A DNA stretch of 64,000 nt from positions 11,407-75,406 of the IMG/VR virus record IMGVR_UViG_3300035703_000059, one strand, 5' to 3'. Shown here piece by piece: positions 24,641 through 62,605 of this stretch (within the stretch, counting starts at the first letter, position 1; every line of letters begins with the position of its first letter). This DNA comes from a virus. The position numbers and the translations under genes were made by a program. The notes below the pieces were generated by a model, which saw only the letters and a list, made by a program, of their open reading frames with translations, did not search any database and was not told the DNA's origin.

Positions 24641-24922
24641 ATGGCAGCCAAGAAGAAGAGGAAGTCCTCGTCGAAACGCAAGATGACGGAGGCGCAGTAC
24701 CGCGCTGCCGTGCGCGCAGGACGTATCGTTCCGGCCAACTACCAAGCGGCCGTGATGGCCGACGTTGATGACGAGTGGAACCGGGCCGTGCGCCGGCAGC
24801 AGGGCGTCGGCGGGCTTACCAGCCCCGACGGCGTCATGGGATTGGCCGTCGGCGCGGTGATCGGAATCGTGGGCGCGCTCCTGTGGAAAGCGTCGAGCGA
24901 CATCGCGAAGAAAGACGCGTAG
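24641..24922 (+). CDS. Basic protein with C-terminal TM
   Basis: AGGAG, ATCGATG; MAAKKKRK; VGGL motif before the TM. Confidence 0.65.
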   Translation: MAAKKKRKSSSKRKMTEAQYRAAVRAGRIVPANYQAAVMADVDDEWNRAVRRQQGVGGLTSPDGVMGLAVGAVIGIVGALLWKASSDIAKKDA

Positions 24923-33737: not shown

Positions 33738-33855
33738 CGATTCTCTCCTCGCCGCGTGATGCGGCTTCCGTGAAACGTCCAACCGTTTCCGTCAGACCCC
33801 AACCATCGATGGCCGGAGGCTGACGGAAACGGCGCGCGGATGCGCGCCGGTCCCC

Positions 33856-35166
33856 TTACGCCGCGAGAGCGAGTTCCACCTTGCGAACGAGATTCTTGTC
33901 GGTGAGGAGCGACCCGGCTTCACGCTCCACCGCGTCGGCATCGAAGGCGCCGCGCCACCGGAAGCCTTCGTGAACGGAACGCGTCACCGCGTTCACCACG
34001 TCGGCGCGCGTGAACCCCGGCTCCTCCATCCAAGCGGATAGAAGGCCAGCCGCCACCTCGGTTTCCTTTCCGGGGAGCGAGAGGATCTTCGCCTTCGATA
34101 GCCCTTCGAAGAACCGATTGGCCGGCATCCCGTCGGTCAGAAGGATCTCGGACCGTGCCTGTCCCCAATCGTGCCGGAACGCGCCGAACTTCACTTCGGC
34201 TTCGGCGAACGCCGACGCCAGCGCGACGTGAATCTCGGTCGGGGCGCCGACGTGCTTCAGCGAGAACAACGCGTGCTTCAGTTGGCCGATGACGATGAGG
34301 TTCAAGCATCGATTCCGCCACGCCACAAGCTCGCCCGTGATGGCGCCCTCGCGAACGTCGTTCGCGCGGAGCCTCAGACCGATCTTGAAAACGTCACCGG
34401 CCGCCAGATCCACCACTTGATCCGGCATCGAGAGGAAGTCGAGCGCCAGCCGCTCGCCGTCGTATCGAACGTCGCCCTTCCACGTCTGCATCAGATCGGC
34501 CGACGACGAGAGGAGCGACGCTAGAACCATGTCGGCATCGAAGGCCGTGTATTTCGTAGAGGCGATCCGGTACACCTCCGGCCGTTCCAGCGTCCGCCCA
34601 TCGATACCCACCTCGCGATAGGCCGCCACAAGCTGCTTCGACTCGCGAGGCAGGTAGTCGTTCAACATCGCCGCACGGACCGCGAGCGAAGCGTGCGGGG
34701 CGTGCGCCGCCGCGAACCGGGGCGCGTCGGGACAAAGGCCGAAGGCGTGTTCCCATGCCGTCGGCGTCAGATCCACGTCCATCCCGTTCAACGTCACCGC
34801 GCCCGTTTTGGCATCGAAGCCGACGAGGCTCAGATCCATCTCGGTTTCGGCGCGATTCTCCCGCTGAATCGCCTTCAGCCGGTCATAAGCCGCCGTCGCG
34901 CCGTCGGGCATCGAGTCGATCTTTCGCCGCTCGATAGTGAAGTTACGGACGCCGGTTTCGTTCACGCGCGACCCGGCCGGATAGATTGGGTCCGTCCGCG
35001 CCGCCGCCTCCTCGCCGAAAGTCTCGACAAGCGCGCGACGCTGGCGAGCGATACGCGCCGCCGCCACCGTCGAAACCGTGCCAGCCTCGCCCGTCATGGT
35101 AACAGGCGACTTCGCCTTGCCCTTCGCGCCGCCCACGATCTCGCCGTTCGTTTTGACGATCTGCAT
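33856..35166 (-). CDS. DUF932-like protein
   Basis: ASTKYTAFD, WRNRCLNL, LKHVG motifs. Confidence 0.65.
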   Translation of the reverse strand: MQIVKTNGEIVGGAKGKAKSPVTMTGEAGTVSTVAAARIARQRRALVETFGEEAAARTDPIYPAGSRVNETGVRNFTIERRKIDSMPDGATAAYDRLKAIQRENRAETEMDLSLVGFDAKTGAVTLNGMDVDLTPTAWEHAFGLCPDAPRFAAAHAPHASLAVRAAMLNDYLPRESKQLVAAYREVGIDGRTLERPEVYRIASTKYTAFDADMVLASLLSSSADLMQTWKGDVRYDGERLALDFLSMPDQVVDLAAGDVFKIGLRLRANDVREGAITGELVAWRNRCLNLIVIGQLKHALFSLKHVGAPTEIHVALASAFAEAEVKFGAFRHDWGQARSEILLTDGMPANRFFEGLSKAKILSLPGKETEVAAGLLSAWMEEPGFTRADVVNAVTRSVHEGFRWRGAFDADAVEREAGSLLTDKNLVRKVELALAA

Positions 35167-35296
35167 CGATTCACCCCTTGCGCGTCAAGCGCGCAAAACA
35201 CGGACCCTCGCCCGTTGAAAGCGTCCCGGCCGACCGAGGCGCTTTCGACGGACGGCGGGGAGCGCGCGCAACGCGCCCCCGCTCGTCCTTCGATTC

Positions 35297-36340
35297 CTAC
35301 CGGCGCATCGAACCAAGCGCCTTCGCCAGCGCGGCGAACTTGCCAGCCTGCGCGGGAGTCGGCGCCCCCCCGTCGATGACGAACGAGAGCGTCATCCACG
35401 CGCCTTGCAACGCCGCCTTCTCGACATCCGACAAGCCCGCCGTGATCACGGCCGCTTGCACGGCCATGACAACCGCGCCGATCTCGTCCATCTTCGGACG
35501 GCCGGAACGCGGACCCGTATCGGCCGGAACATCGGCCGAGTCGCCCTTCGATGCCGCCATGCGCTTCGTTTTGAGCGACGGGGCGATCTCGACTCCCTTC
35601 GCTTCGGCAATCGCAGCGTACACGTCACGCGTCGCGATCTTCGCCGCGCCCCCGTCCGTCGTCTTACGCTTCCCGCTTTCGTCCGTCGCCAGCGCAACGG
35701 CCGCCTTCTGACGTGCAGCCGTGAGGATCGCGTTTTGATCTTCGTGTGGACGCGTAGAAAGCTCCGCGCCCGAAGTCGTCGACAATTCGCCAGCGTTGAC
35801 GGCCGCTTTGATCTCGTCGCTCGCCTTGTCGAGAATGTTGAGGAGATCCTTCAGCCCGTCCACCTTGCGGCCCATAGCGCGGGCCACGTCCGCCTTCGAT
35901 TTCCCGGCCGCCAGCGCCGCCTTCGCCGCACGGGCCTGTGCCATGATCGAAGGCGCCATGCGAACGGCGTTCAATTCGTGCGAGAGAAGGACGCTATCGA
36001 TGTCCGACTTCGGCGCCGCCTTCACCTTGAACGGGATCGTCTTTCGTCCGGCTTCGATAGCGTGCAACGTCCGGCGCCGGCCGTCCTCCACTTCAAGCCG
36101 GCCCTCTTCGTTCACGAACACGATCACGTCGAACATGACGCCGTGCTTCTTGATCGAAGCGAGCGTCACCGGGTCAATCGGATAGGCCGAAAGGTCCGCC
36201 CGTTCGTCGTAACGCGGATGTGCCGCGTCCGTCACGATGAACAATTCCTTCGGATCGATCTCGCCACGGAACCCAACCGGGAAACGCTCGCTCATCGAAG
36301 CCTCCACCGAAACAGTCTCGTTCTTCTTCGCAGCACCCAT
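35297..36340 (-). CDS. ParB/Srx N-terminal-domain protein with HTH
   Basis: LASIKKHGV..V..EDGRRR; ELNAVR; HTH-like SKADVARAMGRK. Confidence 0.8.
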   Translation of the reverse strand: MGAAKKNETVSVEASMSERFPVGFRGEIDPKELFIVTDAAHPRYDERADLSAYPIDPVTLASIKKHGVMFDVIVFVNEEGRLEVEDGRRRTLHAIEAGRKTIPFKVKAAPKSDIDSVLLSHELNAVRMAPSIMAQARAAKAALAAGKSKADVARAMGRKVDGLKDLLNILDKASDEIKAAVNAGELSTTSGAELSTRPHEDQNAILTAARQKAAVALATDESGKRKTTDGGAAKIATRDVYAAIAEAKGVEIAPSLKTKRMAASKGDSADVPADTGPRSGRPKMDEIGAVVMAVQAAVITAGLSDVEKAALQGAWMTLSFVIDGGAPTPAQAGKFAALAKALGSMRR

Positions 36341-36373
36341 CGAAGCCTCCTCGCCGCGAATCGCGGCTTCCTG

Positions 36374-36556
36374 TTAGATCGAGAAATCCAGATCGGACCC
36401 GCCACCGAAAGCCGAGAAGTCGACTCCCGCTTGAGCGCAAGCCCGCACGAACCCGGCCGGGTCCGTCGCCCACATCCTACGAAAAAGCTCTACCCACGAA
36501 AGATTCGGGTCGGCCGCGATGTCCGCCTCCCCGAAAGAATCCGATACGTTCGCCAT
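36374..36556 (-). CDS. First ORF of the early operon, hypothetical
   Basis: GGGGTG RBS; 60 aa. Confidence 0.5.
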   Translation of the reverse strand: MANVSDSFGEADIAADPNLSWVELFRRMWATDPAGFVRACAQAGVDFSAFGGGSDLDFSI

Positions 36557-36571
36557 AATTCACCCCGTATG

Positions 36572-36622
36572 AAAAACCGTCCTATCGGCGGCCCGTCCGA
36601 AAACCGGCCGCCGATAGGACGG
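36572..36622 (-). terminator. Intrinsic terminator upstream of the early operon
   Basis: Perfect 17-bp stem CCGTCCTATCGGCGGCC/GGCCGCCGATAGGACGG followed by U5 on the minus strand. Confidence 0.75.
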
Positions 36623-37312
36623 GGCGCGCGTCACCACGCGCGCCACGTCCCTTGATTTGCTTTCCCCGTTCACTCTACCGATAACAGAGGCGACGCGCCG
36701 TGAGGCTTCCCGATTGGGGCCGCTTGTTCCGATAGTGCCGACGTTACAGAGGCGGATTTCTAGTAGAGGGATCCGCTTGTCGCGACAACGTGCCTTCGAT
36801 ACTTGACGCTCGATTGACCGACGGGAGGCGACCGACAAGCGCGCCGGGAAAATTCACCGGGCGCCGTTCGCGCTTCTCGCCACCTATCGAGCGCTTCGCA
36901 TAGGGAAAGGCTAAAGGGCTTCTATTCGGACCCGCTTCTTCCGCGCGGGTCGCACGATCCGATTCGGACCGTTTTCGTTTTCAGCGCGCCCCCCTTAGTA
37001 GCCTTCGGGGGGGCTTCCTTCTCTATCCCGTTCCGATTCGACACCCCGCGAAGAGGGGGGTGCGCTCGGACCCGATCTAGAGCCTTCGTGACGGGCAACG
37101 GTCCCGTCTTTCGCGCGTCGAATACGCGTCTACTGTATGCAATCGAAGGCTTCGATTGGGTCGCGCGGCTGGCCCGTCCTAAGACGGCGCTTCGCGCTTG
37201 CCTTTCGCGAATCGTTCGACTCCGTTTCCGGTCCGATAGCCTTTCGGCCGATTCGTGCCTTCGATTGTCCGGGGGGCCGGACTAGCAAGCCCCCCCTTCG
37301 TCTAACCTTTCG
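36572..37312 (-). ncRNA. Candidate large structured ncRNA / leader RNA (~740 nt)
   Basis: Bounded by promoters and a terminator; no credible ORF; several hairpins and CGAAAG words on the minus strand. Confidence 0.5.
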
Positions 37313-37318
37313 TCCCTC

Positions 37319-37522
37319 AGTATAGTGCGAGAGGGGTCAAGGTGTCAAGCCCTTTTCGTCTTACCGTCGGGGGCCGTCGTTCAAGCCCCCCAATCTTTCC
37401 CGCTTAGTATATGCGAGAGGGGGCGCGGCGTCAAGCCCCTTTCGCTCTTTTTTCGGTCCCCCGCCTAGCAGGGCGGACCGTCGAACGTGAAAGAGTATGC
37501 CACGGGGCGCCCCCTTACGCAA
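37319..37522 (-). promoter_or_regulatory. Three tandem sigma-70 promoters
   Basis: TTGACA-N18-TATACT (37348-37319), TTGACG-N17-TATACT (37434-37406), TTGCGT-N17-CATACT (37522-37494). Confidence 0.8.
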
Positions 37523-37745
37523 GTAAAAAAAGAAGCCCCCTTGTCGATTCCGGCCGGACGGGGCCAGGGCGCGCCCCCCCTCGCATGATTCTAGGAATAG
37601 AGGCAAATCGATAGGGGGCGCAGTAACTGCGAAAGGACGGCATTATCGGCCCTCTCTCGCATGAAACCTGGGGGCGCGGGGGCCGGGTCCGGGGGGCGCG
37701 GGGGGCCGGACGGCCGGACGGCCGGGTCGCGCGCGCGGAGAAACG

Positions 37746-37774
37746 AAAAACCCCGCGAGCTTTCGCTCGCGGGG
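37746..37774 (-). terminator. Intrinsic terminator of the replication operon
   Basis: CCCCGCGAGC-GAAA-GCTCGCGGGG followed by U5. Confidence 0.85.
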
Positions 37775-37803
37775 GCAGGGCGCAACGCCCTTTTCTCAAT
37801 CAA

Positions 37804-38079
37804 TCAGCGCCAGAATCCCAGCGGCATCGATGGCGCGTCGCCGCCCGCCTCTGCCTCTGTCTCCGCCTTCTTGGGACGGTCGATCTTCGTCAAGCTGGGC
37901 GCTGGCCGCTTGTCCGTGAGAATGACCCACGCATCGATTCCCACTTCCGGCAGGCCGCGCTCCCGATGAAGCTGGTCGAGCTTCTTCGCCGGGACGCGCC
38001 CCTCGTCGATCCACTTCTGAATCGTGCGGCGCGAAACGCCCCACATCTGCGACGCCTGCGATACCGTCAACTGCGCCAT
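37804..38079 (-). CDS. Excisionase/MerR-type HTH protein
   Basis: LTVSQASQMWGVSRRTIQKWIDEGRVPA. Confidence 0.8.
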   Translation of the reverse strand: MAQLTVSQASQMWGVSRRTIQKWIDEGRVPAKKLDQLHRERGLPEVGIDAWVILTDKRPAPSLTKIDRPKKAETEAEAGGDAPSMPLGFWR

Positions 38080-54410: not shown

Positions 54411-55532
54411 CTAACCGCCAGCAAGAAGCGCGTGTTCGACACCGCTTTCCTCCGCCGCAGACGTGATGCGCCGTGACGCAATCTCGAAAAACGCGGACTC
54501 GCGCTCGATACCCACGAATCGATACCCGGCCCGCAGCGCCGCCACACCCGTCGACCCCGAACCCGTGAACGGGTCCAGCACCACGCCGTTCGGCGGCGTC
54601 ACCAAACGGACCAGCCACGCCATCAGTTCGCTGTTCTTCACGGTCGGATGGTTGTTCCCCTCGCCCCGGTCCTTCGCGCTCGCCTTGGAAAAGATGTGGA
54701 ACGCCATCGGGTTGCCGCCCTGCTCGACGATTTCCCACACCACGCACTCGCGCGTGCAGCCGTCCGCCACACACTCGTCGTCGTGTTCGAAGATGACGTT
54801 CTTCGGCCAGCGGCCCGTCGTCTCCGTCGCGGGCGCGTCCACCGGCATCCCGACGAGCGCCATGTTGAGCGAGTTCCCGCCCTTCTTGTTCCCCGCGCGG
54901 CCGTTCACCCGGCGCTCCGTTCCGATTTTCGACCCATCGATGTAGAGGCCACCGACGCCCCACTCGACGATGTTCTCGACCAGCGTGCCGATGAGCGGCT
55001 TTCGCGCCAACACGATTGGCTCATGCGCGGGTCCGAGAGCCGACCCCCAGCCCTTCCACCGCTTCGCGAGGTCGCCCTTCGGCTCGTATGCCTCGACGAC
55101 CGTCGGAGCAGACTGCAACGTGCGGCCGTCGGTGAGGTCGTTCCCGGCGACGCTGAACCGCTTTCCCCGGTGGCCTTGCAGACCCGCCGCCTTGTCGAGC
55201 ATCAGCGCGATGTTCTGCGACTTCGGGAACCCGCCGGGCCGAATCCAATGCAGCGAGTCGCGAATCTCAAAGCCGGCGTCCTCGATGGCGCACGCCATCC
55301 GGTGGTAGGTCCGGGGGGCGCCGAACGACACCAGATGCCCGCCCGGCTTGAGCGCCCGCAGCACGTCGCGCCAGAGGTCAACGCTGAACGCGATGCCCGC
55401 GTCGTCCCACGCGCGATTCATGAACGCAATCTCGTAGGGTGGGTCGGTGACGACCGCATCGATGCTGTCGTCGGGAATCTCGGCAAGCTGCTCCCGGCAG
55501 TCGCCGTTCAGCAGGAAAAAACGGTCCATCAC
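54411..55532 (-). CDS. DNA N6-adenine/N4-cytosine methyltransferase (beta class)
   Basis: VTDPPY precedes HPTVK and LDPFTGSGST. Confidence 0.92.
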   Translation of the reverse strand: MMDRFFLLNGDCREQLAEIPDDSIDAVVTDPPYEIAFMNRAWDDAGIAFSVDLWRDVLRALKPGGHLVSFGAPRTYHRMACAIEDAGFEIRDSLHWIRPGGFPKSQNIALMLDKAAGLQGHRGKRFSVAGNDLTDGRTLQSAPTVVEAYEPKGDLAKRWKGWGSALGPAHEPIVLARKPLIGTLVENIVEWGVGGLYIDGSKIGTERRVNGRAGNKKGGNSLNMALVGMPVDAPATETTGRWPKNVIFEHDDECVADGCTRECVVWEIVEQGGNPMAFHIFSKASAKDRGEGNNHPTVKNSELMAWLVRLVTPPNGVVLDPFTGSGSTGVAALRAGYRFVGIERESAFFEIASRRITSAAEESGVEHALLAGG

Positions 55533-61464: not shown

Positions 61465-61489
61465 TTTTTGCCTCCTTTTGGCTGCGACA

Positions 61490-61880
61490 GTATACAGGTA
61501 TACGCGGCAGAGATGCAATCAAAATCGGGGGTGTAGGTAGAAGTTTTGTCGATTCTGCATCTGTGCCACTAGGTAAGTTTTTGCAAGAAAAAGTAGGTAG
61601 AACCTGTGCTGTTACAGAGAACTTATATATACCCAAGTTACCTACTACCTACCCCCTAAAAAATAGCTGCATAAGTATAGGTAAAAAGAAAAATCGTATG
61701 CACTATAAGAGCTTAGGTGATGTAATCTCTCGTTCTAGCTGTTCTCAAGTCTTTCCGAAAAGGGGAAGGTAGGTAGTAGGTAAGTAGGGTATATATAAGT
61801 GCGATGAAACAGCAGAGATTCTACCTACCACACAGATTCTACCTACCCCAGCACTTTCAAAGTTCTACCTACACCCTTCC
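61490..61880. repeat. AT-rich region with ~60-bp inverted repeat and GTAGGTAGAA iterons (origin-like)
   Basis: 61621-61653 vs 61768-61800 match 31/33; GTAGGTAGAA at ~61533 and 61593, its complement at ~61819, 61837 and 61863. Confidence 0.8.
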
Positions 61881-61987
61881 GCAGTAACCCAAGCGCGATC
61901 CGGCGGCACACCGTTCTTCGCCCATCGATGTGAGGACTTTCACTCTGCACTTGCGTTGCATGATCAAGGGCGGCATGGTCGCGCGCC

Positions 61988-62605
61988 ATGCAACGACGCG
62001 ACTCGTCACAACTCCTGTTCGACTTCGCCCGCACACCGGCGTCCGCCCCTGCGCTCACGCTCGTCGAACCACCGCCCGCAGAGCGCGCGCCCGTCGCCGC
62101 GCGGCCCGTCCTTCCCCCGCGACCGGCCTACGGGCCTCGGACCGACGACCCCAAGGTTCGGCTGACCGTCGTCTGGCCGCCGCCGTCGCCTTATGGCGAG
62201 TTTCCGGCACCCCGACCGGGTCCAGACAGCTTCGCGGACGAACTATTCGCTCTGGAGCCAACAGCGGACGATTTTGACGAGTCGCGTCCTCGGACACGCG
62301 GGGACTGCTACGGCAAGCCGCGCCCGTGTCCGTGGGTGTCGTGCCGGTACAACCTGTACCTCGACGTGCGCGAGGACGGGGGGCTGAAGCTGAACTTCCC
62401 CGACAAGGAACCCGACGAGATCACGGCATCGTGCGCGCTCGACTTGGCGGAGGACGGCTCGCGGACGCTGGACGGCATCGCGGCGCTGATGGGCATGAGC
62501 AAGGAGCGTGCGCGGCAGCTTGAGGCTCGCGGCCTTGGAAAGATGCGCGACGGCCTGCCGCGCCGGGACGACGTCACGCGTCTCGACGACACGGATTGGA
62601 TTTGA
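61988..62605 (+). CDS. Sigma-70 region-4 HTH protein with Cys cluster (myxobacterial type)
   Basis: PRTRGDC..PCPWVSCRYNLYLDV..SCALD..TLDGIAALMGMSKERARQLE; start uncertain. Confidence 0.8.
   Translation: MQRRDSSQLLFDFARTPASAPALTLVEPPPAERAPVAARPVLPPRPAYGPRTDDPKVRLTVVWPPPSPYGEFPAPRPGPDSFADELFALEPTADDFDESRPRTRGDCYGKPRPCPWVSCRYNLYLDVREDGGLKLNFPDKEPDEITASCALDLAEDGSRTLDGIAALMGMSKERARQLEARGLGKMRDGLPRRDDVTRLDDTDWI

Follow-up and report, generated by a model that had tools for sequence, protein, structure and literature searches.

What does a virus with tightly packed genes specify in a stretch of more than a kilobase that appears to encode no protein? The question is raised by a virus recovered from a subsurface metagenome as a single 75,406-bp contig (IMG/VR record IMGVR_UViG_3300035703_000059), of which bases 11407-75406 form the 64,000-nucleotide window analysed here. 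An exact 127-bp repeat is present at both contig ends (contig G000, 1-127 and 75280-75406) and runs through a gene start, which indicates a circular assembly with an overlap of the type left by assemblers and no biological terminal repeat. The genome is 65% GC. Its plus-strand genes extend to window position 24922, and a minus-strand block spans 57097 down to 25007. This block encodes an SNF2 helicase, an N6/N4 methylase (54411-55532), a PD-(D/E)XK nuclease and an AAA_24 protein, followed by a UDG-PolA fusion, an SMC/SbcC-like ATPase and an HTH_17 protein. Then comes the gap, and on its 3' side lie a 60-aa ORF, a ParB-like gene, about 25 small ORFs and a tyrosine recombinase (integrase). No close homologue of the ParB-like protein turned up among 5.8 billion proteins or in IMG/VR. 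The presumed virion arm (window 1-24922, plus strand) encodes 10 large proteins without a PHROG match, barring a LysM/endolysin-like piece. Searching species genomes with a polymerase profile returned neither a provirus nor a clue to the host.

The gap is the largest stretch of the genome without coding signal (36341-37803, or 36557-37803 and 1247 nt if the 60-aa ORF is real), the runners-up measuring 871 and 423 nt. A codon log-likelihood scan trained on 17 confident genes was negative in all six frames across 36560-37800, against +15 to +28 per 120 nt in the flanking genes. This bears out a sequence-only reading of the same DNA, which had described the longest region without a credible ORF; the conserved coding signal that it had named as contrary evidence was sought with the same scan and not found in 36560-37800. 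A tblastx search for decayed genes in the leader gave only scattered, composition-driven hits. Natural variation in the leader lacks a 3-nt periodicity; most variable positions coincide with codon positions 1 and 2 of local ORFs, in which most of the changes would be non-synonymous. The gap most likely specifies a heavily base-paired, untranslated RNA of 740-830 bases, the features of which are collected in Table 1.

Table 1. Features of the leader locus, in window coordinates
Feature	Position	Strand	Remarks
Upstream operon's intrinsic terminator (PolA ... SMC-like, HTH_17)	37751..37774	-	10-bp stem, GAAA loop, T5CGT3
Inverted pair of operator-like words	37575..37662	+	CCCCCCTCGCAT at 37575, CCTCTCTCGCAT at 37651; upstream of promoters
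P3, weak promoter-like, TTGCGT-17-CATACT	37494..37522	-	8/12 match; putative
P2, TTGACG-17-TATACT	37406..37434	-	operator-like word 37422-37411 inside spacer
P1, TTGACA-18-TATACT	37319..37348	-	operator-like word 37336-37325 inside spacer
ORF-free, heavily base-paired leader	36572..37312	-	~740 nt from P1, ~830 nt from P2
6-bp hairpin	37090..37108	-	two compensated base-pair swaps, three metagenomes
Helix-closed domain	37022..37081	-	pair 37081/37022 U-A -> A-U in variant haplotypes
9-bp all-G/C hairpin	36623..36644	-	directly abuts terminal hairpin
Terminal 17-bp perfect hairpin + U5	36572..36622	-	terminator-like and/or double-strand RNase site
Shine-Dalgarno GGGGTGA + ATG of 60-aa ORF	36554..36566	-	ATG at 36556
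60-aa ORF	36374..36556	-	coding signal weak
ParB-like gene	35297..36340	-	first large gene of operon behind leader

The promoters that precede this region set it apart from the rest of the genome. The near-consensus elements that had been reported directly before it are indeed present, and P1 and P2 are the only sigma-70 matches of at least 10/12 in the whole 75,406 bp, other intergenic matches reaching 8/12; three promoter matches were found, compared with a mean of 0.4 in shuffled sequence. P1 and P2 are part of an 86-bp tandem duplication, in which P2 is a 33-nt duplicate of P1 with 85% identity, and the spacer of each holds the 12-nt word CCCCTCTCGCA(T/C). When up to two mismatches are allowed, the word CCCCTCTCGCAT has four intergenic copies, all at the P1/P2 locus. 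The promoter pattern was also searched for in IMG/VR and was not found there. No further promoter was seen between the terminal hairpin and the Shine-Dalgarno sequence, or elsewhere ahead of the downstream operon, in agreement with the earlier remark that the early genes lack any other obvious one. Judging by these motifs, the leader would be transcribed from P1 and P2. Between the upstream terminator and the operator-like words, the minus strand also carries a block of C-runs (37666-37740, CCGGCCGTCCGGCCGTCCGGCCCCCCGCGCCCCCC...), which draws poly-G artefact reads in metagenomes.

Several small hairpins had been singled out by eye on the minus strand, and all are present: GCC-GAAA-GGC at 37239-37248, AATCGAA-N3-TTCGATT at 37141-37157 and C6...G7 at 36989-37013. 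Every other feature coordinate given at that time holds as well. The word CGAAAG, said to be repeated, has six copies on the minus strand and one on the plus, compared with 0.45 expected. The minus-sense leader has a minimum free energy (MFE) of -348 kcal/mol, which undercuts dinucleotide shuffles by 32-37 kcal/mol (z -3.5 to -5.9). Nine of ten coding controls of 756 nt lie within -14 to +14 kcal/mol of their shuffles and the tenth is at -18; z scores as low as -3.4 occur among coding controls. The plus-sense leader is nearly as stable as the minus sense; thermodynamics alone therefore indicates dense inverted repeats and does not point to a strand. GNRA and UNCG tetraloops on Watson-Crick stems of at least 4 bp number four in the sense and none in the antisense of three leaders (those of this virus and of two related lineages described below), numbers too small to be informative.

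Natural variation provides a view of the fold that does not depend on its energy. Metagenomes from freshwater, 'fungus' and drinking water contain close variants of the stretch at low depth; no RNA run was listed as containing it. Contigs from four runs carry at least 20 leader substitutions, which were mapped on the MFE structure of the reference alone; these contigs are low-depth, their haplotypes are linked and the data are strain-level only. The 20 listed substitutions comprise three compensated pairs, 10 unpaired positions, two changes from C-G to U.G and two that disrupt pairing. Two of the compensated pairs lie in one small hairpin (37091/37107, U-A to G-C; 37092/37106, G-C to C-G), and the third, 37081/37022, joins bases 59 nt apart with a pair probability of 0.99. 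Among the listed substitutions, two positions are incompatible with the minus-sense fold, compared with 7.8 expected by random placement (P=0.0015), and five are incompatible with the plus-sense fold (P=0.045). Refolding the leader with its listed substitutions changed the MFE by -0.7 kcal/mol, compared with +15.2±7.1 kcal/mol for matched random sets, none of the 80 being as good. In a 267-nt variant contig covering 36915-37181, all 12 differences are compensated or unpaired. Template switching at quasi-palindromes in DNA can mimic compensated changes. Within the strain-level data, these patterns suggest that selection keeps the fold of the leader RNA, and the variation fits the minus sense better than the plus. 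The proposal of a structured RNA is thus supported both by natural substitutions that preserve the predicted fold and by the folding excess.

The variants show two further peculiarities. The differences within 36915-37181 are concentrated in a hypervariable patch, chiefly 37081-37132, with 11 substitutions in 52 nt that are common to three unrelated metagenomes; the rest of the leader around it is 98-99% identical between variants. This patch looks like a recombined cassette that has retained its hairpins. A CC>TT variant at 36832-36833, seen in two studies, converts GTCGGTCG into GTCAATCG and adds one more CAATCG, a recurrent word, to the minus strand.

The leader ends in a hairpin that had been described as a 17-bp stem with U5 about 15 nt before the first early start codon, and the ATG is indeed found 15 nt further on. 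The stem (36622-36577, minus strand) has a dG of -41.5 kcal/mol (20 nt at 95%) and is followed by TTTTT at 36576-36572. Together they have the make-up of an intrinsic (Rho-independent) terminator, with an unusually long stem; one terminator scan missed it. Clean hairpins followed by T5 occur at only three sites of the minus-strand block, namely at the end of the upstream operon (37750), at the leader hairpin (36576) and at the end of the block (24955), and the leader hairpin is the most stable terminator-like site of the genome. The U5-tailed helix probably terminates transcription in this virus.

How much of this arrangement is shared was assessed in relatives found with the polymerase profile. 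The polymerase family is large, and the order polymerase, p140 and SMC-like gene is widely conserved among the fetched loci. In the closest relative (L001, 73% polymerase identity) the contig ends 284 nt past the polymerase gene; the nearest lineages with enough flanking sequence are L087/L107 and L088, the latter a complete 85.8-kb record (the records of L088, L107 and L087 are G001, G002 and G004, respectively). Both lineages have the same order as this virus, with an SMC-like gene, an HTH gene, a gap, one or more small ORFs and a gene with ParB_N and HTH domains. Their gaps fall in the range 1.25-1.45 kb (1.36 kb in L087 and 1.43 kb in L088) and contain no credible ORF. The ParB-family proteins of the L087 and L088 lineages are 36% identical to each other, and each is 24-29% identical to that of this virus. 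Larger gaps in L056, L045, L075, L014 and L090 were not counted, as they lack sigma-70-like promoters and ParB genes.

In L087 and L088 the gap begins with a hairpin after the upstream gene, followed by the palindrome GAATCGATTC and by four to five copies of a ~16-nt repeat (GGCCCCCNGATG..AGA), the last of which lies within the spacer of a promoter (GGGGCTTGAC/CAT, GGGGCTTG-type). About 1 kb of hairpin-rich sequence comes next. A search with the operator pattern of these relatives returned only chance matches and contigs that were already known. Their leaders fold better than shuffles (z -5.2 and -4.0), their coding controls reaching -3.5. No similarity was detectable among the leaders of the three lineages beyond the control part common to L087 and L088, and a common fold is therefore unproven. 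As these syntenic leaders are unalignable, covariation between diverged homologues had no alignment to draw on; the leaders of L087 and L107 differ at only three positions and are uninformative. The idea of a large RNA conserved in sequence is thus not borne out. A perfect helix of 17-19 bp nevertheless closes the leader in all three lineages, 20-74 nt before the first ORF. In this virus it stacks on an extra 9 bp. The U-tract that follows it here is absent in L087 and L088, and termination does not hold up as a conserved role of the hairpin. Because the relatives keep the helix and not the U-tail, a shared role of the RNase III type, in which the 5' end of the mRNA is processed or stabilised, appears more likely from the sequence comparison. 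Leaders processed by RNase III, such as those with T7 R0.3 or of lambda N, carry a helix of about two turns.

Two observations in these genomes touch on the ParB operon. A match to the self-cleaving Twister-P5 ribozyme, which scores 38.9 bits (gathering score 37.6) and shows the conserved CGGUCCCAAGCCCG core, immediately follows the ParB-like gene in the complete relative (L088, 20827-20889, plus strand) and has no counterpart in the window; it hints that RNA cleavage may shape the ParB operon in the clade. The palindrome CATCGATG occurs 51 times in the genome of this virus and two to three times in the relatives. Conversely, GAATCGATTC occurs 59, 38 and 25 times in the records of L088, L107 and L087, respectively, and is absent here, and reversed-pattern controls gave none. 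Since these dispersed palindromes are lineage-specific and the ParB-family proteins diverge in step, they may be ParB sites or targets of the viral N6/N4 methylase.

Large non-coding RNAs are carried by other viruses, and GOLLD and ROOL had been named as examples. Members of the GOLLD and ROOL families keep their sequence and structure even when distantly related. All 4227 Rfam families, including GOLLD, ROOL, HEARO and OLE, were searched, and the best hits in the region scored 12-21 bits (E 3-10), compared with gathering scores of 36-90. Neither GOLLD (RF01998) nor ROOL (RF03087) matched even at E<=10, so that kinship is not supported and nothing links the leader to either family. A blastn search against phage records also gave no match. 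The leader resembles GOLLD and ROOL in size class and in being carried by viruses, and differs from them in its sequence turnover; as its sequence is not conserved, it cannot be called GOLLD- or ROOL-like. A parallel in layout is offered by the early region of T7, where the tandem host promoters A1-A3 are followed by an untranslated leader and by the RNase III site R0.3 before gene 0.3. Here too, strong host-type promoters stand in tandem, the leader is long and untranslated, and a long helix immediately precedes the first early gene. In contrast to T7, the leader is about twice as long, the helix is U5-tailed, the unit lies mid-genome after another operon, and cleavage by RNase III is only putative. 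By analogy, the working principle resembles those of the T7 early leader and of lambda pR'-tR', and the RNA belongs to no described family. Our verdict is that it represents a new, fast-evolving structured leader or non-coding RNA.

The explanation that we prefer, held with evenly balanced confidence, is that the region is the long untranslated 5' leader of the sole operon with strong host sigma-70-type promoters. Host RNA polymerase would start at the duplicated promoters P2 and P1, and a virus regulator would probably act through the 12-nt word present in both spacers and in two inverted copies upstream; the 91-aa HTH protein encoded just upstream is the obvious candidate for this regulator. 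The resulting RNA of 740-830 nt is predicted to fold into several closed domains with base-pairing under selection. The control point would be the stacked 9-bp and 17-bp helix with its U5, 15 nt before the first ribosome-binding site, where most polymerases may be halted and/or the RNA may be cut by a double-strand-specific RNase. Downstream expression would then hinge on read-through or processing. A gating role for the leader, as the sequence-only reading had proposed, is plausible. What best fits the data is a long, structured, fast-evolving leader of which the position, the regulated strong promoter, the dense pairing and the long terminal helix are conserved.

Other explanations share part of this evidence. 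The locus could be a stand-alone RNA gene, whose 740-nt product ends at the hairpin and U5 and has a trans-acting role, perhaps in taking over the host or as a decoy against its defences; leakage through the terminator would be all that feeds the downstream genes. The strongest promoters stand before it, it forms a complete promoter-to-terminator unit closed by the most stable terminator-like hairpin of the genome, and natural variation preserves its fold. However, neither syntenic relative conserves the U-tract, a trans-acting RNA bound to a fixed partner would hardly be expected to show such extreme sequence turnover from lineage to lineage, and the operon would be left without a promoter of its own between hairpin and Shine-Dalgarno sequence; we consider this possibility real but rather unlikely. 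Processive antitermination of the put or nut/Q type, in which an RNA element or a promoter-bound protein makes polymerase resistant to the leader terminator and later ones, would account for a strong promoter followed by a terminator ahead of the first gene of a long operon. The same layout is found at lambda pR'-tR', which yields a 6S RNA of 194 nt and is subject to Q antitermination, and the operator-like word occupies the -35/-10 spacer, which is the binding place of Q in lambda. The RNA here would be 740 nt, the relatives do not conserve the terminator, nothing resembling N or Q was identified among the proteins scanned, and boxA is absent (the best match has three mismatches, at the -10 of P3, which is chance level). 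In HK022, put measures ~70 nt and consists of two defined stem-loops of ~35 nt each, which need no protein to act on polymerase; the leader is likewise a folded RNA past early promoters that could govern read-through in cis, but the two-stem-loop module was not identified in it. Antitermination of either kind is very unlikely in our estimate.

Function might also reside in the DNA: the region could load ParB or act as a centromere, provide a signal for replication or priming, or be a site of recombination, with the hairpins serving as protein sites or single-strand DNA structures. A ParB-family gene adjoins in all three lineages, the folding excess is nearly symmetric between strands, and repeat arrays overlap the promoter as in the centromere-operators of plasmids (R1 parC and the omega sites of pSM19035), where the operon likewise carries a partition-type gene. 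Yet this likeness is limited to the promoter-proximal 300 nt and does not extend to the 740-nt leader, and a ParA partner is not evident. The region holds a single 19-nt palindrome and the leader no repeated one, and CATCGATG is absent from the whole of 33811-37825, where no parS-type array was found. For the promoter-proximal repeats a centromere role is conceivable; for the leader it is not, given the lack there of repeated palindromes and of any of the 51 CATCGATG sites. The compensated pair spanning 59 nt and the G.U-compatible changes also fit a minus-sense RNA better. As for replication, gene orientation and GC skew switch at ~26 kb and at 57-62 kb, which puts a likely origin at about 57-62 kb and the terminus around 26 kb, away from the leader. 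Overall, we regard a DNA-level element as distinctly unlikely. A transcription-primed origin of the ColE1 RNA II or T7 primary origin type was rejected, as no switch in skew or orientation occurs at the promoters and both the divergence point and an AT-richer gap lie at 57-62 kb. This 871-nt gap (61465-62335, 55% GC) adjoins a DUF3987 helicase-type gene where orientation and GC skew diverge, and is a better candidate for the replication origin than the leader region. Reading the leader as a genome end was likewise discarded, as the assembly is circular with its 127-bp overlap and the skew switches elsewhere. Finally, the region might be spacer or decayed DNA without a function of its own, its palindromes being kept by templated mutation. 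Sequence conservation between lineages is absent, as that would predict, but three lineages whose genomes are otherwise tightly packed have kept a gap of similar size at one position, in each case with a perfect 17-19-bp terminal helix, and every difference in the 267-nt variant contig is compensated or unpaired, which makes spacer DNA highly improbable.

If the leader is transcribed as predicted, it would rank with the longest untranslated leaders of any known bacterial virus, and it precedes the only operon of this genome with a strong host sigma-70-type promoter. A fold that is kept while the sequence is wholly replaced between related lineages would suit an element engaged in conflict or one with lineage-specific partners. 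A bolder reading, which we put forward tentatively and consider rather improbable, is that the strongest promoters in a clade of uncultivated viruses, with virion proteins that match those of no known phage family, serve to express a new class of large structured viral RNA. Such an RNA would be 0.75-1.1 kb long, fast-evolving and fixed in position before a ParB-family gene, and would be a discrete molecule and no passive leader, with a role in taking over the host, evading its defences or controlling the ParB operon. The promoters, the leader and its terminal helix provide a defined target for studying how this group of viruses times the expression of its early and ParB genes.
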